A stretch of 36,981 nucleotides of DNA, taken from IMG/VR virus record IMGVR_UViG_2703718854_000003. One strand, written 5' to 3'. Shown here piece after piece: positions 4,972-34,361 of this stretch (position 1 is its first letter; each line of letters starts with the position of its first letter). Below the pieces are notes generated by a model. The model was not told where the DNA came from and ran no database searches. It worked only from the letters and a program-made list of their open reading frames with translations. The DNA is from a virus. Lineage: Duplodnaviria > Heunggongvirae > Uroviricota > Caudoviricetes. The translations under genes and the position numbers were made by a program.

Positions 4972-5825
4972 GCACCATCCTGAAATGGGCGGGAAATAAA
5001 ACCGCCATTATGTCCGAACTGAAAAAACACCTTCCTGCTGGCCCGCGACTGGTTGAACCTTTCGCGGGTTCCTGTGCTGTGATGATGGAGACGGATTACC
5101 CCAGCTATCTTGTTGCGGATATTAATCCTGATTTAATCAACCTCTATAAAAAGGTTGCTGCTGATTGCGAGGCGTTTATATCTCGTGCCAGAGCTTTATT
5201 TGAGGAAGCAAACAGGGAGTTGGCTTATTACAACATAAGACAGGAGTTTAATTACTCCACTGAAATTACTGATTTCATGAAAGCGGTATATTTCCTGTAT
5301 CTCAATCGTCATGGTTACCGTGGGTTATGTCGTTATAACAAGAGCGGGCATTTCAACATTCCATACGGTAATTATAAAAATCCGTATTTCCCTGAAAAAG
5401 AAATTCGCGCATTTGCAGAGAAAGCCCAGCAAGCAACGTTTATCTGCGCCAGCTTTGATGAAACGCTGGCGATGCTGCAGGTGGGGGATGTGGTGTATTG
5501 CGATCCGCCTTATGACGGTACGTTTTCCGGCTATCACACTAACGGCTTCACTGAAGATGACCAGTATCACCTGGCATCTGTTCTTGAATATCGATCATCA
5601 GAAGGTCATCCAGTCATTGTTTCTAACAGTGACACATCCCTGATCCGTTCGCTGTATCGAAATTTCACTCACCACTACATCAAGGCAAAACGCAGCATCG
5701 GCGTGTCGGCTGGCGAGAGTAAATCTGCAACAGAAATCATCGCTGTTTCTGGGGCGCGCTGCTGGGTGGGATTTGATCCTTCGCGTGGCGTGGATAGTTC
5801 TGCCGTGTACGGAGTGCGTGCATGA
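4968..5825 (+). CDS. dam: DNA adenine methyltransferase (Dam-like, GATC N6-adenine MTase family)
   Basis: N-terminal SAM-binding motif LKWAGNK...PFAGSCAV and catalytic DPPY motif (VVYCDPPY). Start chosen at ATG 4968 overlapping the upstream stop (ATGA), not the ORF-track start 4908. Confidence 0.85.
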
Positions 5826-8236
5826 GCCATGCTGATATGAACAACTGCAGCGGCTTTAACGAGGCCGCCGCAGCATTCTCATGGAACAGCCCGAAAAAGG
5901 CTATTAACCCTTATCTGGACCTGGCGGAAGTTGCGCCGGTTTCTGCGCTTTCAAACCTGATCACTCTGTACGCTGCCGATAACGAGCAGGAACAACTGCG
6001 CCGCGAGGCACTGAGTGATCAGGTTTGGGAGCGTTATTTCTTTAATGAATCCCGTGATCCTGTCCAGCGCGAAATGGAGCAGGATAAGTTCATTAGCCGG
6101 GCAAAGTTGGCGCATGAGCAGCAGCGTTTTAACCCGGACATGGTCATTCTGGCAGACGTTAACGCCCAGCCTTCCCATATCAGCAGGCCGCTGATGCAAC
6201 GTATTGAATACTTCAGCAGCCTTGGCAGGCCAAAGGCTTATTCCCGCTATTTACGTGAGACGATTAAGCCATGTCTGGAACGGCTGGAGCATGTACGCGA
6301 CAGTCAGCTATCCACTTCTTTTCGCTTTATGGCAAGCCATGAAGGGCTGGACGGCCTGCTGATTCTGCCTGAAATGAGTCAGGATCAGGTGAAACGCCTG
6401 TCCACCCTTGTTGCTGCGCATATGAGCATGTGCCTTGATGCAGCTTGTGGCGATTTGTATGCCACCGATGACGTTAAGCCAGAAGAAATCCGCAAGACAT
6501 GGGAAAAGGTGGCAGCAGAAACCCTGCGACTGGATGTCATACCGCCTGCGTTTGAGCAACTCCGCCGGAAAAGAAACCGCCGTAAACCCGTGCCCTATGA
6601 ACTCATTCCGGGTTCGCTGGCGCGTATGTTGTGCGCCGATTGGTGGTACCGGAAATTATGGAAGATGCGTTGCGAATGGCGGGAAGAGCAGTTGCGTGCT
6701 GTTTGCCTGGTCAGCAAAAAAGCATCTCCCTATGTCAGCTATGAAGCCATGATGCATAAACGTGAGCAGCGCCGTAAGTCGCTGGAGTTTTTCCGTTCTC
6801 ATGAACTGGTGAACGAAGACGGCGACACGCTGGACATGGAGGATGTGGTAAACGCCAGCAGCAGCAACCCTGCGCATCGCCGCAATGAGATGATGGCCTG
6901 TGTTAAAGGTCTGGAGCTTATCGCGGAAATGCGCGGTGACTGCGCCGTTTTCTACACCATCACCTGTCCGTCACGTTTCCATTCCACGCTAAATAACGGC
7001 AGGCCCAACCCGACCTGGACAAATACGACGGTAAGACAAAGCAGTGATTATCTGGTCGGCATGTTTGCTGCATTTCGTAAGGCGATGCACAAAGCCGGAT
7101 TGCGCTGGTATGGCGTGCGGGTGGCTGAGCCGCATCATGACGGTACAGTTCACTGGCACCTGTTGTGTTTTATGCGCAAAAAAGATCGCCGCACCATTAC
7201 TGCTTTGTTGCGTAAGTTTGCCATTCGTGAAGACCGCGAGGAGCTGGGTAATAACACGGGACCACGCTTTAAGTCTGAGCTGATAAACCCGCGCAAAGGT
7301 ACGCCAACAAGCTACATCGCGAAATACATCAGTAAGAACATTGACGGGCGTGGTCTGGCTGGCGAGATCAGCAAGGAAACGGGTAAATCCCTGCGTGATA
7401 ACGCTGAATACGTTAATGCCTGGGCGTCTCTGCATCGTGTTCAGCAATTCCGCTTCTTTGGCATTCCGGGGCGTCAGGCTTACCGTGAACTGCGATTGCT
7501 GGCTGGTCAGGCGGCAAGGCAACAGGGGGACAAAAAAGCAGGTGCGCCGGTACTGGATAACCCGCGCCTTGATGCAATCCTGGCTGCTGCTGATGCTGGT
7601 TGTTTTGCCACCTACATCATGAAGCAGGGCGGCGTACTGGTTCCCCGCAAATATCACCTCATCAGAACTGCTTATGAAATCAACGAAGAACCGACCGCAT
7701 ATGGCGATCACGGTATTCGTATTTATGGCATCTGGTCACCCATTGCAGAGGGCAAGATCTGCACTCATGCGGTGAAGTGGAAAATGGTTCGTAAGGCCGT
7801 TGACGTTCAGGAGGCGGCAGCCGACCAGGGCGCTTGCGCCCCTTGGACTCGTGGCAATAACTGTCCCCTTGCTGAAAATTTGTACCAACAAGGGAAAGAC
7901 AAATCAGCTGATGGGGATACCAGAACGGATATCACCCGTATGGATGACAAGGAGTTGCACGATTACCTGCACAGTATGAACAAAAAAGAGCGCCGGGAAC
8001 TGGCTGCAAGGTTACGCCTGGTGAAACCGAAACGGCGTAGAGACTACAAACAGCGAATTACAGACCATCAACGACAGCAGCTCGTCTATGAACTGAAGTC
8101 CAGAGGATTTGATGGCAGCGAGAAAGAGGTCGATTTACTCCTTCGCGGCGGCAGCATTCCGTCAGGAGCAGGCCTGCGTATCTTCTATCGGAACCAGCGT
8201 TTGCAGGAAGATGATAAGTGGCGGAACCTGTATTAA
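5822..8236 (+). CDS. A: Rolling-circle replication initiator endonuclease (P2 gpA family)
   Basis: 804 aa; HUH-type motif [10 protein letters not shown] and active-site tyrosine motif [12 protein letters not shown]; position after the early operon as in P2/186. Confidence 0.85.
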
Positions 8237-9092: not shown

Positions 9093-9308
9093 ATGTCAAG
9101 CATCGCCGCATTTAGCCTGGGTAACCCAGTTGAACGTCTGGCAAGGGTTCTTAAAGAGAACCAGGACAAACTCAATCTTAGTAAAGATGGTTTTGTGTCC
9201 GTAGACTTGTCTAACAAAAGAGCAATGGATGCCATCAAGGCACAGATGGATAAGCTTGAAGGCATCAAAACGAGCACTGTAAAAGAGAAAACTAATAGAA
9301 CCAGATAA
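9093..9308 (+). CDS. Hypothetical small protein (71 aa)
   Basis: Strong SD (AAAGGGGGAG) 3-12 nt upstream of ATG; stop overlaps the start of the next gene (TAATG). Confidence 0.55.
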   Translation: MSSIAAFSLGNPVERLARVLKENQDKLNLSKDGFVSVDLSNKRAMDAIKAQMDKLEGIKTSTVKEKTNRTR

Positions 9309-10150
9309 TGGCAACATTACTTTTAGCAGTGATTTTGGTTAGTGGTTTTATTTATGTAAACCTATCACTTTCAACAAGATACCGATATAAGCGTTCCAAC
9401 GGCTGGGACGCTTATTTTTTTGTGGCTGCCTGGGGTATCGTTTTTTTTCTCCTTGGCGGTTTTTTCACCTTTATTTTGAACGTCAGCGGAGGGTTTCGTT
9501 GGCTGGCTAATGCCTTGAATCTAACACCTGACAGTTTTAATGGCATGTTGTCTTCATCGAAAGACAAACTTCAAAGAATAAATGAAATCAAACAGATAGC
9601 ATGGGTTATGATTTCAATTGTTCTCGCTGCGATTTCAGGTTTTGGAAATAAGTTACGCACATCACGTGGAGATCGTCGCTGGGATGCCTTAGCTAAAGCT
9701 GTGGGTAATAACGCTTTCGAATCATTACTCATGGAAGCGTCCGCAAGACAGTTTCCGATCATAGCAACTCTGTCGTCTCGCAAAATCTATGTTGGTCTTG
9801 TTACTTGTCCGGCGTTAGAAAACGGGCTTTCAGAACACCTTGAACTTCTCCCGATGTTAAGCGGATATCGGGATAAAGATGATCTAACGATTAGTATCAC
9901 GACTAACTATCACCAACATTATCTTGATAGTGGTGTGATAAGTGGAATGTCTCGGCTTAATATCGAAGATTTCCGTGTGCTCATACCAAAAGATGAGGTT
10001 GAAACAATTTCGTTTTTTGATACTGAGACATATAACAAATTTAAAGAAAATGAAGCCAGGGATAGAAAGAACTGTCGAAAGATTGGTAGTAAAAGTGCAT
10101 CTTCGCGCAGCAAGCGTGCAGCAGATGCTGAGTCAAATGATCGTGCATGA
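9308..10150 (+). CDS. Hypothetical membrane protein (three N-terminal TM helices plus C-terminal soluble domain)
   Basis: Hydrophobic segments LLLAVILVSGFIYV, FFVAAWGIVFFLLGGFFTFIL, IAWVMISIVLAAISGF; translationally coupled to the 71-aa ORF; followed by an intrinsic terminator. Confidence 0.6.
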   Translation: MATLLLAVILVSGFIYVNLSLSTRYRYKRSNGWDAYFFVAAWGIVFFLLGGFFTFILNVSGGFRWLANALNLTPDSFNGMLSSSKDKLQRINEIKQIAWVMISIVLAAISGFGNKLRTSRGDRRWDALAKAVGNNAFESLLMEASARQFPIIATLSSRKIYVGLVTCPALENGLSEHLELLPMLSGYRDKDDLTISITTNYHQHYLDSGVISGMSRLNIEDFRVLIPKDEVETISFFDTETYNKFKENEARDRKNCRKIGSKSASSRSKRAADAESNDRA

Positions 10151-10198
10151 CTATGCTGCATGAGATCGCATGATCGTTTGAGGATCGTTTTTGCTAAG

Positions 10199-10222
10199 GC
10201 CCGCCAGAACTGGCGGGCTTTT
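10199..10222 (+). terminator. Rho-independent terminator
   Basis: GC stem GCCCGCC-AGAACT-GGCGGGC followed by TTTT. Confidence 0.75.
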
Positions 10223-10267
10223 GCGTAGATCATGCACCTGCATGAAAACTACTACATAAAGCGGGCA

Positions 10268-10286
10268 GGCGTGGCGGGGATACGAG
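10268..10286. other. Candidate cos (cohesive-end) core of the prophage
   Basis: GGCGTGGCGGGGATACGAG resembles the P2/186 19-nt cohesive-end sequence as I remember it (GGCG-A/T-GGCGGGGAAAGCA-C/T). Lies in the region where P2 has cos, but is separated from Q by the retron-like cassette. Confidence 0.45.
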
Positions 10287-10319
10287 CGCGCGCTGAGCTG
10301 CATTCACTTGAATAATCCG

Positions 10320-10500
10320 TATGTTAGTGCTAGCCTAGCTGTGCCCTTAGCAGGAAAGTACATTCAATATGTTACTTTCTAGTGGTTGGTGTTTAGCCAA
10401 CTCGTATGGATTGCTTGGTATCTCGACACAAGTTAGCCTTGTGTCATTTATAGACACCAGGCTAACTTGTGTCTCGGGAACTCTTGTATGGGCATTAATT
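10320..10500 (+). ncRNA. Candidate retron msr-msd non-coding RNA (boundaries approximate)
   Basis: Structured non-coding stretch immediately upstream of the effector-RT pair. Small stem-loops (AAAGTACA-TTCAATA-TGTTACTTT at 10346-10369; GTTGG-TGTTTAG-CCAAC) are followed by a long hairpin at 10425-10473 (14-bp perfect stem GACACAAGTTAGCC/GGCTAACTTGTGTC enclosing inner stem GTGTC/GACAC), typical of an msd. The flanking a1/a2 inverted repeats could not be identified. Confidence 0.45.
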
Positions 10501-10503
10501 GTT

Positions 10504-11421
10504 ATGTGGTTTAAACATCCTAGATATTTACGAGCAAAAGAAAATTTTATTTCAAGTTTTTTTCCAAGTAACTTGAATTCTTTTAATTATATCCTGCCAA
10601 AAGTATTATTTATTTGTGGAGGAGATGAGACTTATTGTTCAAATAGAGGGATGCTGGAAAAATATATTGCTAAGCATCATAAAGAATTTGTTACTTTTCG
10701 AGCAGAATTAGCATGGGAAGTAATTAGCAATTTAGGAACTCATAGTAATGTGAATGCGCTATCACTTGAAGAATGGCTTGCGGATTTTTCTGATGTGGTA
10801 ATTATTCTCGTAGAGAGTTATGGCACTGTAGCTGAATTGGGCGCATTTTCATTAAGTCCTGTTTTACGTAAAAAACTTCTTCCTATATTAGATAAAAAGT
10901 TTGAAAGTCATAAGTCATTTATCAATACAGGGCCCGTAAAATGGGTTGATAGTGAATCCAAATTTGGCCCTACAATCTATACTGAATTTGAGACAATTTT
11001 AACGTGTATGCCTAAAATAAATGAAAGGCTAAATAGGAAAGTTCAATCAAACATAACTAATACAAATTCAATAGGTGATTACAAATATTCACCAAAAATT
11101 TTTTTATTTTTTGTGCTCGTTGTTATATCTTCTTTAGGTCCAATAACAATTCCTGAGATTATTAATATCACAGGTAGGTTGATAAATTATAAAATTAATA
11201 AAAATATTTCATTTGTTGTTTCTATTGGAGTTGCCCTTGGGATTTTTAAGGAAAGTCGATTTGAGGGCGTGACCCATTATTCATGTGTCGATTATATTAA
11301 ATTTTTTAATCATGAAAAGATGAAAGATTTAGTTGAAAGTATTCAACGAAGTAGAGCTAGATCATTATCCGATTTAATAATGATATCTAAATTCAAAGCA
11401 GAATTAGAAAGGATCATGTGA
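10504..11421 (+). CDS. Candidate retron effector: NDT-like (nucleoside deoxyribosyltransferase-like N-glycosidase) domain plus C-terminal putative DNA-binding domain
   Basis: AT-rich gene directly abutting the RT. Motifs KVLFICGGDE and DVVIILVESYGTVAELGAFS resemble NDT-like folds found in type II retron effectors. ORF-track start 10369 overlaps the hairpin, so start placed at in-frame ATG 10504 (10651 also possible). Domain assignment is from motif memory. Confidence 0.5.
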   Translation: MWFKHPRYLRAKENFISSFFPSNLNSFNYILPKVLFICGGDETYCSNRGMLEKYIAKHHKEFVTFRAELAWEVISNLGTHSNVNALSLEEWLADFSDVVIILVESYGTVAELGAFSLSPVLRKKLLPILDKKFESHKSFINTGPVKWVDSESKFGPTIYTEFETILTCMPKINERLNRKVQSNITNTNSIGDYKYSPKIFLFFVLVVISSLGPITIPEIINITGRLINYKINKNISFVVSIGVALGIFKESRFEGVTHYSCVDYIKFFNHEKMKDLVESIQRSRARSLSDLIMISKFKAELERIM

Positions 11422-11422
11422 T

Positions 11423-12352
11423 ATGTTAATTGAGTATCTAGCTAAAGTTTTACTGTTAGAAGCTGATTTTATATTAAAAGTTGCAAATGATGCTAACTCG
11501 CATTATGGTAAATTTTCTGTACCTAAAAAAGGCGGTGGGACAAGAATCGTCTATCAGCCCTCTAAAGAATTAAAAGTTTTGCAGAGATTACTTCATGATA
11601 ATGTTCTGTCGAAATTGCCGATTCATCCAAATGCTGTAGCATATCAGCAGGGTTCATCAGTGTTCAAACATGCAAGCATTCACAAAGCTAAACGTTTTAT
11701 GCTTAAGATGGACTTTGAAGGTTTTTTTGATTCAATTAAGAAAAGTGATGTTGAGAGATTTATAAACGACAACAAGCATTTCTTCAGTGATGATTGGTCA
11801 AAGGATGATACTGATTTGCTGGTGAAAATAGTATGCTTTAACGGGAGACTGACTATGGGTGCTGTTAGTTCCCCTGTGGTAAGCAATGCTATATGCTATG
11901 AATTAGATCATATATTGAATGAATTTTGTCTTTCAAAAGGTATAACATATACACGCTATGCTGATGATATGTACTTCTCAACAAACGAAGAAAATGTATT
12001 GAAGCAAATACCACCTTTTTTACGCTCGAATTTAAAAAATTTGAAATACCCATCAAAACTATGGATTAATAGAAAAAAGACACTGCATATGTCAAAGAAA
12101 AATAAAATGATGGTTACGGGTGTGACTTTGACAACAGATGGTGGAGTATCCTTAGGGAGAGATAAAAAAAGGATGGTTAAATCGCTTATTTTTAAATGGG
12201 AGGCTCTTGATGAGAAGAAAAGGCTATTTCTTCAAGGATATTTATCGTATTGCAAAAGTGTTGAGCCATTATTTATTAATAGGCTTTGTGCGAAATATTC
12301 ATCAGAGCTGATTGATGAAATCCAGAGATATCAACCTGTAGTATCAGAATAA
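11423..12352 (+). CDS. Retron-type reverse transcriptase
   Basis: RT motifs in order: PKKGGGTRIVYQPS (motif 1/2), LKMDFEGFFDSI (motif A), SSPVVSN (motif B'), YTRYADDMYF (motif C, YADD) and the retron-typical VTG triplet (KMMVTGVTL). About 309 aa, similar in layout to the Ec86 RT. AAAGGA SD; start 2 nt after the effector stop. Confidence 0.8.
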   Translation: MLIEYLAKVLLLEADFILKVANDANSHYGKFSVPKKGGGTRIVYQPSKELKVLQRLLHDNVLSKLPIHPNAVAYQQGSSVFKHASIHKAKRFMLKMDFEGFFDSIKKSDVERFINDNKHFFSDDWSKDDTDLLVKIVCFNGRLTMGAVSSPVVSNAICYELDHILNEFCLSKGITYTRYADDMYFSTNEENVLKQIPPFLRSNLKNLKYPSKLWINRKKTLHMSKKNKMMVTGVTLTTDGGVSLGRDKKRMVKSLIFKWEALDEKKRLFLQGYLSYCKSVEPLFINRLCAKYSSELIDEIQRYQPVVSE

Positions 12353-12358
12353 CGTGTG

Positions 12359-12389
12359 TGCGCATGAAAATTTCCATGCGCATTTTCTT
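12359..12389 (+). terminator. Intrinsic terminator after the retron-like operon (overlaps the 3' end of Q)
   Basis: Stem TGCGCATG/CATGCGCA with 8-nt loop, followed by TTTTCTT on the plus strand. Confidence 0.6.
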
Positions 12390-13413
12390 AAAAACAGTAG
12401 TCATTAAATGAAATAATTTCTTTTCCAGCCCAGTTATTCAGTGATTCAAAATTCTTTTGCAATGGCATTAACTCATTCCGCACAAACACTTTGCTTGCCT
12501 TCTCCACATCCCCAAATCCCCCAACACTATTAGGCATAATCCCCATCATCTGCGGCGGCACGCGGTGTGCCGCCATCATGTCATCGCGACTAACATTTTT
12601 GATATTCAAAAACTCATCCTTCGCCGCGACTTCTGACAATGGGATGATCTGAAGCCCGTCTTTTTTGCCGTTAGGCGAGTACATAAACAGGTTGCGGAAG
12701 TTGCCTGGCCCTTTGGCGCTTTTCATCGCGTTGCGGAGGTTGTTCACATCCTCCTGGTTCTGAGCGGCATCGGTCATGTACATTATGAATCCTGCATGGC
12801 TGCCATTAATATAATATTTGCGTCGGAACAGCGTGGCGGACTCGTTGAGCAGGGCTGACGGAATGGCAGAAAGATAACCGGGCAGGCCGTAGATCTCCTG
12901 GTTGATATCGGGTTCCATCAGATGAAAGATGCTGCCTTTCGTGAACTGATACGGCTGGGTTGTCATGCCGTATTGCACAAACCAGTAGGTATCCAGGTCT
13001 AACCCACGTCGGGTGTATTTTGCCAGAGCAGGCTCAAGGGCGATAACTTCACCGAACCGGTTCGTGCGTTTCTCCAGGTATGCGTTACCAAATACCAGAT
13101 AGTCCTGCACAAAACGTGAAAAAGCCTGCTGGCTGAGAAGCGGGTGAGGGATGTAGGTACTGGTCAGAATGTTGCATTTCACCGCAATTGGTGAACTGTG
13201 ATGCACGGCAGCGCGGAAGGTTCGCGCCAGTCCGTCAAAACTCACTGGCGGCTCATACCAGCGATCTGTCTGTACGCATTCCACATAGTCCAGCAGTTCG
13301 CGGCGGTCCAGAACAGGAACGGGATCGCCAAAGCTGAATGCTTCGGCTGAAGTCTGGCTTTTATGCTGAATCTGGTTCGTCGACACAGCGCGGTTCTTCT
13401 TACTCTTTCCCAT
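12388..13413 (-). CDS. Q: Portal protein (P2 gpQ-like)
   Basis: About 341 aa, N-terminus MGKSKKNR...; lies in the Q-P pair divergent from O-N-M-L as in P2; start chosen at ATG 13413. Confidence 0.8.
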   Translation of the reverse strand: MGKSKKNRAVSTNQIQHKSQTSAEAFSFGDPVPVLDRRELLDYVECVQTDRWYEPPVSFDGLARTFRAAVHHSSPIAVKCNILTSTYIPHPLLSQQAFSRFVQDYLVFGNAYLEKRTNRFGEVIALEPALAKYTRRGLDLDTYWFVQYGMTTQPYQFTKGSIFHLMEPDINQEIYGLPGYLSAIPSALLNESATLFRRKYYINGSHAGFIMYMTDAAQNQEDVNNLRNAMKSAKGPGNFRNLFMYSPNGKKDGLQIIPLSEVAAKDEFLNIKNVSRDDMMAAHRVPPQMMGIMPNSVGGFGDVEKASKVFVRNELMPLQKNFESLNNWAGKEIISFNDYCF

Positions 13414-15179
13414 CAAAAAATCTCCACAATATTGCTGGTATTGGCGGACTCGCCCTGCAGCGGTTCGTTAAACAGTGCGTGCATTGTTGCCCACGCCAGA
13501 TCGGCATGGCTGGCTTCTTCGCTGCGGCTGGCTTCATAGGTCGGGCGGTTGCCGCTGGCGGTGGTGGCGCGACGGATTGCCATAAATGACTGCGCTATGT
13601 CGGTGTGTCCGGCGTCAAACTCCAGACGGCGGTGACTGATAATGTCGTAGGCCTTGAGTACCAGGGCATTTTTAACGTTGGGGTTGTAGACAAACTCCCG
13701 GACGGCAGGAAAAAACGCTTTCACGTTCTCGTAAACCCCGTGACCGACGCCGGTTGAGTCGATACCGATGTATGTCACGTTGTACTGTTCAGTCAGTTTT
13801 TTGATGGCGTCAGCCTGGGCGCGGAAGTCCATCCCGCGCCACTGGTGACGCTCAAGAATGCGGAACTTACCGCCCGGCACGGCTGGCGGTGCCACCACTA
13901 CGCATCCGGCGCTGTCGCCGTTCTGCGTACCTTTTGCCGGGTCATAACCGATCCACACTTCGCGCCAGCCAAACGGGCGCAGCGCCAGTGCATGAAAGTC
14001 GGTCCAGACTTCCCAGCTGTCCACCATGCACGCCTGTAGTTCGCTGAGCGGGAACACGGACGCGAGATCGTCCACAAACTCGCACATCAGCAGGTTCTGG
14101 TATTCGTCCGGGCTGTATTCCATGCGCAACTGGTCAAGGTCGAACAGGTTACAGCCGCCGCGCACCGCATCTTCGACGGTGACTATCTGGCGGTATTGCC
14201 CGTCAGCGCACAGCAGGCCGGGGGCCAGATTGTTGTGGGACAGGTCGATGTCCACCTTGTCGGCTTTGTTGCGTCCGCGGTTGAACAGCGCACCGGACCA
14301 GAACGGATAAGCACTGTGGGTCAGGCTGGATGGTGTGGAAAAATAGGTCTGCCGCCATTTCTTGTGAATAGCCATACCGGAAGCCACTTTGCGTAGCTCC
14401 TGAAATTTCGGTATCCAGAAATATTCATCCAGATACAGGTTGCCGTGATAACTCTGGGCCGTGCGGGCATTGGTGCCGAGGAAGTAAAGCGTGGCCCCGT
14501 TAGGAAGCACCATCGGATCGCCTTTCAGTTCCACATCCACTTCTTTGGCGAAGTCGATGATGTACTGCTTAAAGACGTGGGCCTGTGCCTTACTGGCGGA
14601 AAGGAAAATCTGGTTACGTCCGGTAAGCAGGGCGTCAATCAGGGCTTCACGGGCAAAGTAAAAGGTCGCGCCGATCTGGCGTGACTTCAGCAGGTTGCGG
14701 ATGCGGTTGGTTTTTCCGGCTTCCCACCAGTGGCGCTGGTAGTTGAACATGGAGGAATGGAAGATTTTTTCCAGCTTCTCAATCTGTTCATCGGTGAAGA
14801 CATTCTTTTCCGGCTGACGGCGCGGGCCTTTGTTGCGGTTGGCGACGTTAGGGTTTAAGTCAGCTTCGTTGCCGCCATTGTTAAACTTGCCGATCCGCGC
14901 GTGGCGCTCAGACTGGCGCGCCAGCAGGTCAATCTCTTTGAAATCTTTCCCTTCTTTGTGCTCCTTCATAATGAGCTGGCAGTAGCGTGCGGCGGTGGTG
15001 AGCTGCATCTGATCCAGCGGCCCATAGTCACCCCACTTGTCGCGTTTTTTCCAGCTGTGAACGGTTGCAACTTTCTCGCCCAGCATTTCAGCAATGCGGG
15101 CGACGCGGTATCCCTGAAAGTACAGCAGCATGGCCTGCCGACGGGGATCGAGATCTGCGGGTGTCAGTGTGGTGTTCAT
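13413..15179 (-). CDS. P: Terminase large (ATPase) subunit (P2 gpP-like)
   Basis: 588 aa; synteny with Q and divergent from the capsid operon. Confidence 0.8.
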   Translation of the reverse strand: MNTTLTPADLDPRRQAMLLYFQGYRVARIAEMLGEKVATVHSWKKRDKWGDYGPLDQMQLTTAARYCQLIMKEHKEGKDFKEIDLLARQSERHARIGKFNNGGNEADLNPNVANRNKGPRRQPEKNVFTDEQIEKLEKIFHSSMFNYQRHWWEAGKTNRIRNLLKSRQIGATFYFAREALIDALLTGRNQIFLSASKAQAHVFKQYIIDFAKEVDVELKGDPMVLPNGATLYFLGTNARTAQSYHGNLYLDEYFWIPKFQELRKVASGMAIHKKWRQTYFSTPSSLTHSAYPFWSGALFNRGRNKADKVDIDLSHNNLAPGLLCADGQYRQIVTVEDAVRGGCNLFDLDQLRMEYSPDEYQNLLMCEFVDDLASVFPLSELQACMVDSWEVWTDFHALALRPFGWREVWIGYDPAKGTQNGDSAGCVVVAPPAVPGGKFRILERHQWRGMDFRAQADAIKKLTEQYNVTYIGIDSTGVGHGVYENVKAFFPAVREFVYNPNVKNALVLKAYDIISHRRLEFDAGHTDIAQSFMAIRRATTASGNRPTYEASRSEEASHADLAWATMHALFNEPLQGESANTSNIVEIF

Positions 15180-34126: not shown

Positions 34127-34205
34127 CGCTGCCGCCATTTTGTCGCCATCGTTAAAAAGCAGTGCTTCTAACATCATGATTTTAAAAGGCATAAATTTCA
34201 GACAA

Positions 34206-34249
34206 CAAAAAACCCATCAACCTTGAACCGAAATGGCGGGGTTGATGGG
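34206..34249 (-). terminator. Terminator-like hairpin downstream of ybjL (minus strand), also a candidate prophage/host junction landmark
   Basis: 10-bp stem CCCATCAACC/GGTTGATGGG; on the minus strand it is followed by TTTTTT. Loop is long (17 nt). Confidence 0.45.
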
Positions 34250-34361
34250 CTCCACAAAATGGGGACATCAAAGAAAAGCAGTGGCACTAATTAAGACTGA
34301 TGCCCTGCGGAAAAGTTCTGCGGTTGTGCAAAAAAATTTCATTTTCAGGGCAACTTCAGTT

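Follow-up and report, generated by a model that had tools for sequence, protein, structure and literature searches.

A type II-A1 retron noncoding RNA predicted at a long hairpin in the gpA-gpQ hotspot of a P2-like prophage

What is the role of a long, near-perfect hairpin that lies immediately upstream of an effector gene in the viral record IMGVR_UViG_2703718854_000003? The window, meaning the whole stretch of DNA that was analysed (36,981 bases, with positions counted from its first letter and features on the + strand unless marked otherwise), is a P2-like prophage. The original prediction, made from the letters of the window, had proposed the hairpin at 10425-10473 as a candidate msd and had been unable to find the a1/a2 inverted repeats that should flank it. 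We propose that the hairpin forms the msd stem in the msr-msd noncoding RNA (ncRNA) of a retron of type II-A1 (St85/Sen2 family), which the prophage carries in its gpA-gpQ hotspot as a defence cassette, and we place the probability of this reading at about 0.93. Both proteins encoded at the locus can be assigned to retron families, and the hairpin forms the msd stem of a conserved, covarying RNA. Those features by which type II-A1 is defined (Mestre et al., PMC7736814) and which could be tested were all found here, and the locus is an unannotated but ordinary member of a known retron family.

The hairpin and the two genes downstream of it

An inverted-repeat search recovered the hairpin as two arms of 21 nt each (10425-10445 and 10453-10473) that are 95% complementary and separated by a 7-nt loop. 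The pairing consists of 15 bp (10425-10439 with 10459-10473), a T.C mismatch at 10440/10458 and a further 5 bp (10441-10445 with 10453-10457), in agreement with the earlier description of a long and nearly perfect stem. Inverted repeats of at least 14 nt within 60 nt of each other number just four across the whole window. The 73-nt multicopy single-stranded DNA (msDNA) predicted from the locus (see below) folded as DNA at -21.5 kcal/mol, compared with -5.3 ± 1.9 kcal/mol for shuffled sequences (z = -8.4), and the strength of the hairpin is far above chance. It had also been remarked that the stem is not followed by the T-run of a terminator, and this was borne out, with the sequence 3' of the stem being TCGGGAACTC and a scan of 10100-10700 calling no intrinsic terminator. 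As a separate observation, each arm is able to fold on itself (GACACAAG/CTTGTGTC in 10425-10445; AGACACCAG/CTTGTGTCT in 10452-10474), and therefore a two-hairpin alternative to the long stem exists.

The gene order is ncRNA (10339-10497), effector (10504-11421) and reverse transcriptase (RT; 11423-12352), all on the + strand. The effector is an RcaT-like protein of 305 aa with an NDT-like domain, and it matched the NCBIfam family NF038232 ("retron St85 family effector") at 178.7 bits against a cut-off of 100 and the PADLOC profile NDT_II-A at 181.1 bits. The retron RT of 309 aa (WP_047090129.1), whose translation contains the YADD motif, matched NF038233 ("retron St85 family RT") at 326.2 bits against a cut-off of 235, PADLOC RT_II-A at 349.5 bits, and Pfam RVT_1. 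Its best match amongst solved structures was PDB 22et_A, titled only "Retron" (E = 1.5e-54).

RefSeq annotates no ncRNA at this position. Its effector coding sequence (CDS), WP_181654987.1 for E. coli MS14386 and YP_009789833.1 for Klebsiella phage 4LV2017, starts at ATG 10369, encodes a protein of 350 aa and takes in msr, msd and a1. Homology of the effector to its relatives begins only at the residue encoded at 10504, where the start MW(F/S/Y)(K/N)HP is conserved, and the PADLOC effector profile begins at residue 12 of the 305-aa form. Furthermore, in 11 relatives the frame is closed by stop codons that lie between the hairpin and the conserved start of the effector, and most relatives lack an upstream in-frame ATG. 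The homology start, the profile start and these stops argue for ATG 10504, not the annotated 10369, as the probable true start of the effector. This would mean that the public records for MS14386 and 4LV2017 make the effector CDS 45 codons too long, carrying it across the msr-msd region, and since the RT cluster is present on at least 1000 contigs, mostly of Klebsiella pneumoniae, the error may be widespread.

Structure and covariation of the ncRNA

From an RT alignment, 79 loci were gathered, with one genome taken per species, and closer relatives were added by exact protein look-up. Two alignments were used, A2 being a MAFFT alignment of 17 ncRNAs and A3 an alignment of the hits of a covariance model, R1. 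When folded as RNA, the segment 10325-10505 gave -67.9 kcal/mol (z = -6.2) in a structure closed by GUGCCC/GGGCAU and containing two small hairpins and the long hairpin. RNAalifold applied to A2 independently recovered the a1/a2 helix, the second msr stem and the msd stem. With the 37-pair structure, 83.1% of cells in A2 were paired, compared with 33-50% when the partners were slid, the covariation score was 0.333 against at most 0.151, and 25 pairs changed on both sides; none of 500 shuffles reached the observed values. The corresponding figures for A3, in which fitting to the covariance model inflates the pair counts, were 89.9% of cells paired against 36-49% and a covariation score of 0.740 against at most 0.172. 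The msd stem itself (helix 4) was 89.4% paired in A3 with covariation at 15 of its 15 pairs, and one relative, locus L083, has a compensatory change inside the hairpin.

The whole ncRNA, 10339-10497, is the single match of R1 in the window (147.3 bits, E = 5e-32, full model length), a match obtained by construction since the window belonged to the seed of R1. Of 84 related loci, 47 gave a full-length + strand match directly 5' of the effector gene, and these 47 span several phyla. The matched loci include 27 that were not in the seed, amongst them representatives of Acidobacteriota, Nitrospira, Sulfuricurvum and Clostridia, and these provide independent support for the RNA model.

The flanking repeats are present, and they are short. 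The a2 repeat (GTGCCCTTA, 10341-10349, with its conserved core at 10343-10349) pairs with the a1 repeat (TATGGGCAT, 10487-10495) in a helix of 9 bp with one U-U mismatch (10347/10489), leaving 8 of the 9 pairs formed. Only the 7 pairs nearest the G are conserved in the family, and with a helix as short as this the repeats escaped a search by eye. The original prediction had offered two explanations for the missing repeats, of which short or degenerate repeats proved correct and an atypical architecture did not, the ncRNA architecture being of the standard IA/IIA1 type. Amongst relatives, 7 of the 9 pairs change on both sides. Three positions show, among their pair types, CG, UA and UG, a fourth shows UA and CG, and the compensatory sets include CCCTTA/TAAGGG, TCCTTA/TAAGGA, CCCCTA/TAGGGG and CTTTTA/TAAAAG. 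Two other a1/a2 candidates were rejected, both being unconserved. The pair ACTACATAA/TTATGTGGT (10251/10502) starts in P2 backbone common to 1279 E. coli records, and the second arm of AATAATCCGTATG/CAAAAGTATTATT (10311/10598) falls within the effector open reading frame (ORF).

Next to a2 lies the candidate branching G, at 10350, the 2'-OH of which would prime reverse transcription. It is part of a TAG that is invariant in 17 of 17 aligned ncRNAs, and the two adjoining pairs do not vary in any of the 48 model hits. The G opposite it, at 10486, is excluded from the predicted msDNA, and a G precedes a1 in all aligned relatives. A motif thought at first to resemble the 5' end of Ec86 msr, TGTGCCCTTAGCAGG, corresponds to a2 together with the candidate branching G; the resemblance (CCCTTAG) is sound, but the motif lies at 10340-10354 and not at 10331-10345. 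The Ec86 junction, which we take to be CCCTTA-G ... G-TAAGGG, would be the same as the junction of the present family.

Between the branching G and the hairpin are two msr stem-loops. Stem-loop 1 (10353-10380; 11 bp interrupted by a bulge, with a loop of 5 nt) is seen in the RNA fold and by covariation, with 85.7% pairing in A2, 88.6% in A3 and two-sided changes at 7 of 7 pairs in A3. Stem-loop 2 (GGTTGG-TGTTTAG-CCAACT, 10384-10402; 6-7 bp with a 7-nt loop) is the most conserved part of the RNA, being 100% paired in A2 and 94.1% in A3, and its motif GGTTGGTGT is kept in close relatives. The general plan of these close relatives runs, from the 5' end, CC(C/T)TTA-G, a variable hairpin, GGTTGGTGTATAGCCGACC and a linker ending in ATTG, followed by a long variable hairpin, G-TAAGG(G/A) and the effector start. 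The direct repeats that had been noted on either side of the hairpin were located as described (AACTCGTATGG at 10399-10409; AACTCTTGTATGG at 10479-10491), and we regard them as incidental. In the window the repeats exceed chance, with 5 of 1000 shuffles equalling them, in loci L080 and L084 they are weaker, from 17 other relatives they are missing, and the second copy is composed of the msd 3' end and the start of a1.

The ends of the msd template, 10413-10485, were transferred by alignment from the sequenced reverse-transcribed DNA (RT-DNA) of a Colwellia relative, retron 257 of the census of Khan et al. (PMC10849725), and carry an uncertainty of ~1-2 nt. The Colwellia RT-DNA starts 1 nt 5' of the G that precedes a1 and ends opposite the G of ATTG. 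At locus L005, whose ncRNA is identical to that of the census entry save for letters duplicated at PDF line joins, this rule reproduces the sequenced RT-DNA exactly. The msDNA predicted for the window is the reverse complement of 10413-10485, a 73-nt molecule (AAGAGTTCCCGAGACACAAGTTAGCCTGGTGTCTATAAATGACACAAGGCTAACTTGTGTCGAGATACCAAGC) that by homology transfer would begin AAGAGTTCCC and finish ATACCAAGC. The one position at which the msd stem is mismatched, T10440 opposite C10458, is spanned by a CCAGG (Dcm-type) motif at 10457-10461; in the msDNA version of this site, CCTGG stands opposite CAAGG with a G.A mismatch, and the motif is kept in L080, L083 and L084.

A promoter for the retron operon is predicted at 10308-10336, with a -35 element TTGAAT at 10308-10313 and an extended -10 element TGcTAGCCT at 10328-10336. 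The spacer is 17 nt to the -10 hexamer, and the predicted transcription start at ~10343 coincides with the 5' end of the core of a2 that is conserved. This assignment draws on positional conservation, as in most relatives (C)TTGA(A/G) and TGnTAnnnT occur at a fixed distance from the branching G.

Prophage context, alternatives and proposed mechanism

Within the prophage the cassette occupies the cos-proximal gpA-gpQ region, which in P2 is a published hotspot for anti-phage systems including retrons (PMC9122126). On one side is gpA (5822-8236, Pfam Phage_GPA), and on the other are a portal gene (12388-13416, -) and a terminase ORF (13413-15179, -), which RefSeq calls the terminase ATPase subunit. 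A megablast search of complete E. coli genomes returned 1279 records that match only from 10150 to ~10298, which puts the left boundary of the insert near 10299. The whole cassette was found in 9 records from 8 of 5426 E. coli genomes, all at 99% identity or higher, and distant blastn added none. Compared with E. coli MS14386, the window shows 100% identity over 10150-12400, and with Klebsiella phage 4LV2017 the identity is 98%. Close relatives of the cassette also exist outside P2-like phages (L080-L082, in Enterobacter, and L086-L087), one lying between an ars operon and a GIY-YIG gene and another (L086) adjoining a P4-like primase. The occurrence of the cassette in both phage and non-phage settings indicates that it moves between mobile and chromosomal contexts.

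Other features of the prophage may be mentioned here. Directly 5' of the retron in the hotspot is a 280-aa ORF (9308-10150, +), hypothetical in RefSeq, which had no NCBIfam or Pfam match, and its 3' flank (10150-10298) is the segment common to ~1279 E. coli records. Within gpA there is a 24-nt inverted repeat (5946-5969 / 6010-6033; 88% complementary, 40 nt apart) that might relate to the phage origin. A full-length match to the RybB small RNA at 34204-34282 (-) (105.3 bits, E = 7e-21) probably marks chromosomal sequence beyond the prophage end.

Several points weigh against the retron assignment or parts of it. A generic promoter scan of 10100-10700 called no promoter, and a scan of the whole window with Rfam gave no match at the locus at gathering thresholds; a permissive Rfam scan of 10250-10560 returned only chance-level matches to miRNA-like hairpins (E up to 10). 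The A3 pair counts are inflated, as stated above. Production of msDNA from this locus is a prediction, and its 3' end is taken from a relative with an RT just ~49% identical. The U-U mismatch at 10347/10489, which is absent from most relatives, could lower priming efficiency. The mechanism and triggers considered for the effector are taken from relatives.

The U-U mismatch also lies at the centre of one rival explanation, in which the retron is decaying and the A-to-T change in a1 (TATGGG for TAAGGG) leads to poor priming and little or no msDNA. Amongst the 17 aligned ncRNAs the mismatch is restricted to the window, L080 and L084, and the effector's sole Shine-Dalgarno-like motif is also made weaker by the A-to-T change (-2.4 versus ~-4.7 kcal/mol). 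However, the variant is common to three lineages whose genes have diverged by ~15%, both ORFs are intact, and the msd is 97-100% conserved among these lineages, indicating continued selection. In addition, 8 of the 9 a1/a2 pairs remain, and an inactive antitoxin would leave the toxin unchecked. We therefore regard decay as improbable, while giving it somewhat more weight than either of the remaining alternatives.

It could instead be supposed that the hairpin is simply effector coding sequence, as the 350-aa RefSeq protein would have it, since the frame is open from 10369 and the CDS is called in both E. coli MS14386 and Klebsiella phage 4LV2017. The evidence on the effector start given above speaks against this, from the onset of homology at 10504 and of the PADLOC profile at residue 12 to the in-frame stops and the absence of an upstream in-frame ATG from most relatives, and moreover the region evolves by base-pair covariation and not codon by codon. 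Similarly, the hairpin is placed within the effector mRNA's leader and, in a P2-like phage, within the cos-proximal region, and this position would suit an ordinary 5' untranslated region (UTR) or attenuator, or a phage DNA site (cos-proximal or for recombination), with no reverse-transcribed product. Against such an element, no T-run follows the stem, the upstream gene has its own terminator-like hairpin at 10193-10224, and the long hairpin accompanies the RT and effector into non-phage contexts, always flanked by a covarying a1/a2 helix with the invariant TAG. The homologous segment in Colwellia is sequenced RT-DNA. The outcome that the original prediction had named as its own refutation, a translated or plain 5'-UTR element, is thus contradicted by the stops in 11 relatives and by the RT-DNA of the homologue, and we consider each of these two alternatives highly improbable.

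If the hairpin is the msd stem of a functional type II-A1 retron, a mechanism can be proposed. One transcript spanning msr, msd, effector and RT would be made from the cassette's extended -10 promoter, starting at ~10343. The a2 repeat would pair with a1, as the covariation indicates, setting G10350 beside the msd 3' end. By homology, the RT would recognise the msr stem-loops, prime from the 2'-OH of G10350 and copy from 10485 to ~10413, and the product would be the 73-nt msDNA, with the 20-bp hairpin as its dominant element. The 3' end of this msDNA would presumably remain paired to the msr RNA, with RNase H removing the template. In the relatives Retron-Sen2 and Retron-Eco9 a toxin-antitoxin mechanism has been described (10.1101/2020.06.22.160168, 10.1101/2020.06.22.160242), and it is likely that here too the RT-msDNA complex would keep the RcaT-like effector inactive until modification or degradation of the msDNA hairpin by phage proteins frees the toxin and aborts infection. 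The published triggers acting on msDNA are Dam methylation of GATC and degradation by RecE (same sources). Since the msd of the window has no GATC, the Sen2-type Dam trigger would be inapplicable and the trigger here would differ. The mapped ncRNA and the predicted 73-nt msDNA together constitute a ready design for tests of phage defence or genome editing.

Two side observations bear on the regulation of the cassette. In comparison with three relatives, no segment of the cassette is as well conserved as the msd template: it is identical in 73 of 73 positions (100%) in L080, where the effector and RT genes are 85% and 83% identical, in 71 of 73 (97.3%) in L084 (85% and 82%), and 91.8% identical in L083 (74% and 65%). 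The msd is usually viewed as the variable part of a retron, and the conservation seen here is unlike that. The second observation is that in 14 of 18 close loci the a1 core (TAAGGG, TAAGGA or TAGGGG), at a distance of 6-10 nt from the effector start, is the sole motif there of Shine-Dalgarno type, while in the other 4 it lies 19-29 nt from the start and a separate Shine-Dalgarno motif is present. In the window, too, a1 is the only such motif 5' of the effector start, and the TATGGG of its clade is the weaker form, so that this variant weakens both the a1/a2 helix and the Shine-Dalgarno motif. A limited literature search found no report of a1 as a ribosome-binding site. Both observations are correlative, and may be new.

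They raise the tentative, and in our estimation rather doubtful, idea that the ncRNA does more than template msDNA, with a1/a2 gating translation of the toxin and the msd hairpin being read sequence-specifically. If so, a1/a2 pairing, resolved by reverse transcription and RNase H, could couple the dose of toxin to msDNA synthesis. Identity of the msd at 73 of 73 positions while the protein genes differ by ~15% would imply sequence-specific reading of the msDNA hairpin, in which case the effector or a phage trigger would read its sequence, the candidate site being the CCAGG across the stem mismatch. Should both observations hold, they would bear on the toxin/antitoxin balance of type II-A retrons and on how msDNA is read.

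Comparison with known retrons

Amongst the named retrons, Retron-Eco1 (Ec86) shares with this locus an NDT-like effector (PDB 7v9x_C, E = 1.5e-17) and a P2-like prophage carrier (PMC6868368). It differs in being of type II-A3, with a1/a2 repeats of ~12 bp, an msDNA of another shape and a more distant RT (E = 4e-32). The effector gene of Ec86 follows the RT.

The named RTs of solved structure that come nearest include those of the type I-A retrons Ec78 (Eco7) and Ec83 (Eco4), at E = 9e-50 to 1e-43, and I-A and II-A1 have been assigned a common ncRNA type (Mestre et al., PMC7736814). Ec78 likewise has two msr stem-loops and a single long msDNA stem-loop, with six nucleotides of the msDNA 3' end pairing with msr, and the two msr stem-loops found here match the published descriptions for Vmi1 and Ec78. 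The effectors of Ec78 and Ec83, in contrast, consist of PtuA, an ATPase, with PtuB, a nuclease, and are not NDT-like.

Retron-Eco3 (Ec73, of retronphage phiR73) is also of type II-A1, with an accessory ORF between msd and RT and a mobile element of the P2/P4 system as its carrier, and the predicted msDNA length of 73 nt is the same. Identity with Ec73, judged by published descriptions and RT accessions, was nevertheless rejected. The Ec73 RT is reported to bind a 9-bp msr stem with a 3-base loop (PMC6868368), and neither msr stem-loop of the window has this form; the carrier is a P2-like phage and not a P4-like satellite; and the RT accessions differ (WP_047090129.1 here, WP_137545672.1 in the census). 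Locus L086, which adjoins the P4-like primase, was considered as a candidate for Ec73 in E. coli and dismissed, there being no megablast match in 5426 E. coli genomes.

In the census supplement (PMC10849725) the exact ncRNA of the window was not found, and the E. coli and Klebsiella II-A1 entries listed there have a different ncRNA. Its retron 257, from Colwellia psychrerythraea and of type II-A1, has a homologous ncRNA and sequenced RT-DNA, with the same a2-TAG, the GGTTGGTGT stem-loop, the ATTG stop motif and a G+TAAGG a1. It differs in its proteins (RT ~49% and effector ~50% identical), in its msDNA, which is 95 nt long with another hairpin sequence, and in having a Shine-Dalgarno motif of its own, 25 nt 3' of the a1 core.

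In organisation the locus corresponds to the type II-A1 retrons Retron-Sen2 (St85, Salmonella Typhimurium) and Retron-Eco9 (E. coli NILS-16), the likeness to Sen2 being based on family profiles and descriptions. Identity with Retron-Eco9 was rejected. RcaT-Eco9 carries Ser155, Ser181, Ser254 and Ser292 (PMC13645617), and at these positions the effector has G/Q/E/I in 305-aa numbering and A/H/S/I in 350-aa numbering, with no constant offset that fits. The msDNA here would start with AAGA, whereas a TAGA motif was reported for Sen2. These retrons nonetheless have the same order of msr-msd, NDT-like effector and RT, two msr stem-loops, short a1/a2 repeats, a single long msDNA hairpin and the same NCBIfam families, and by analogy their tripartite mechanism of an RcaT toxin and an RT-msDNA antitoxin would be expected to operate at this locus as well.

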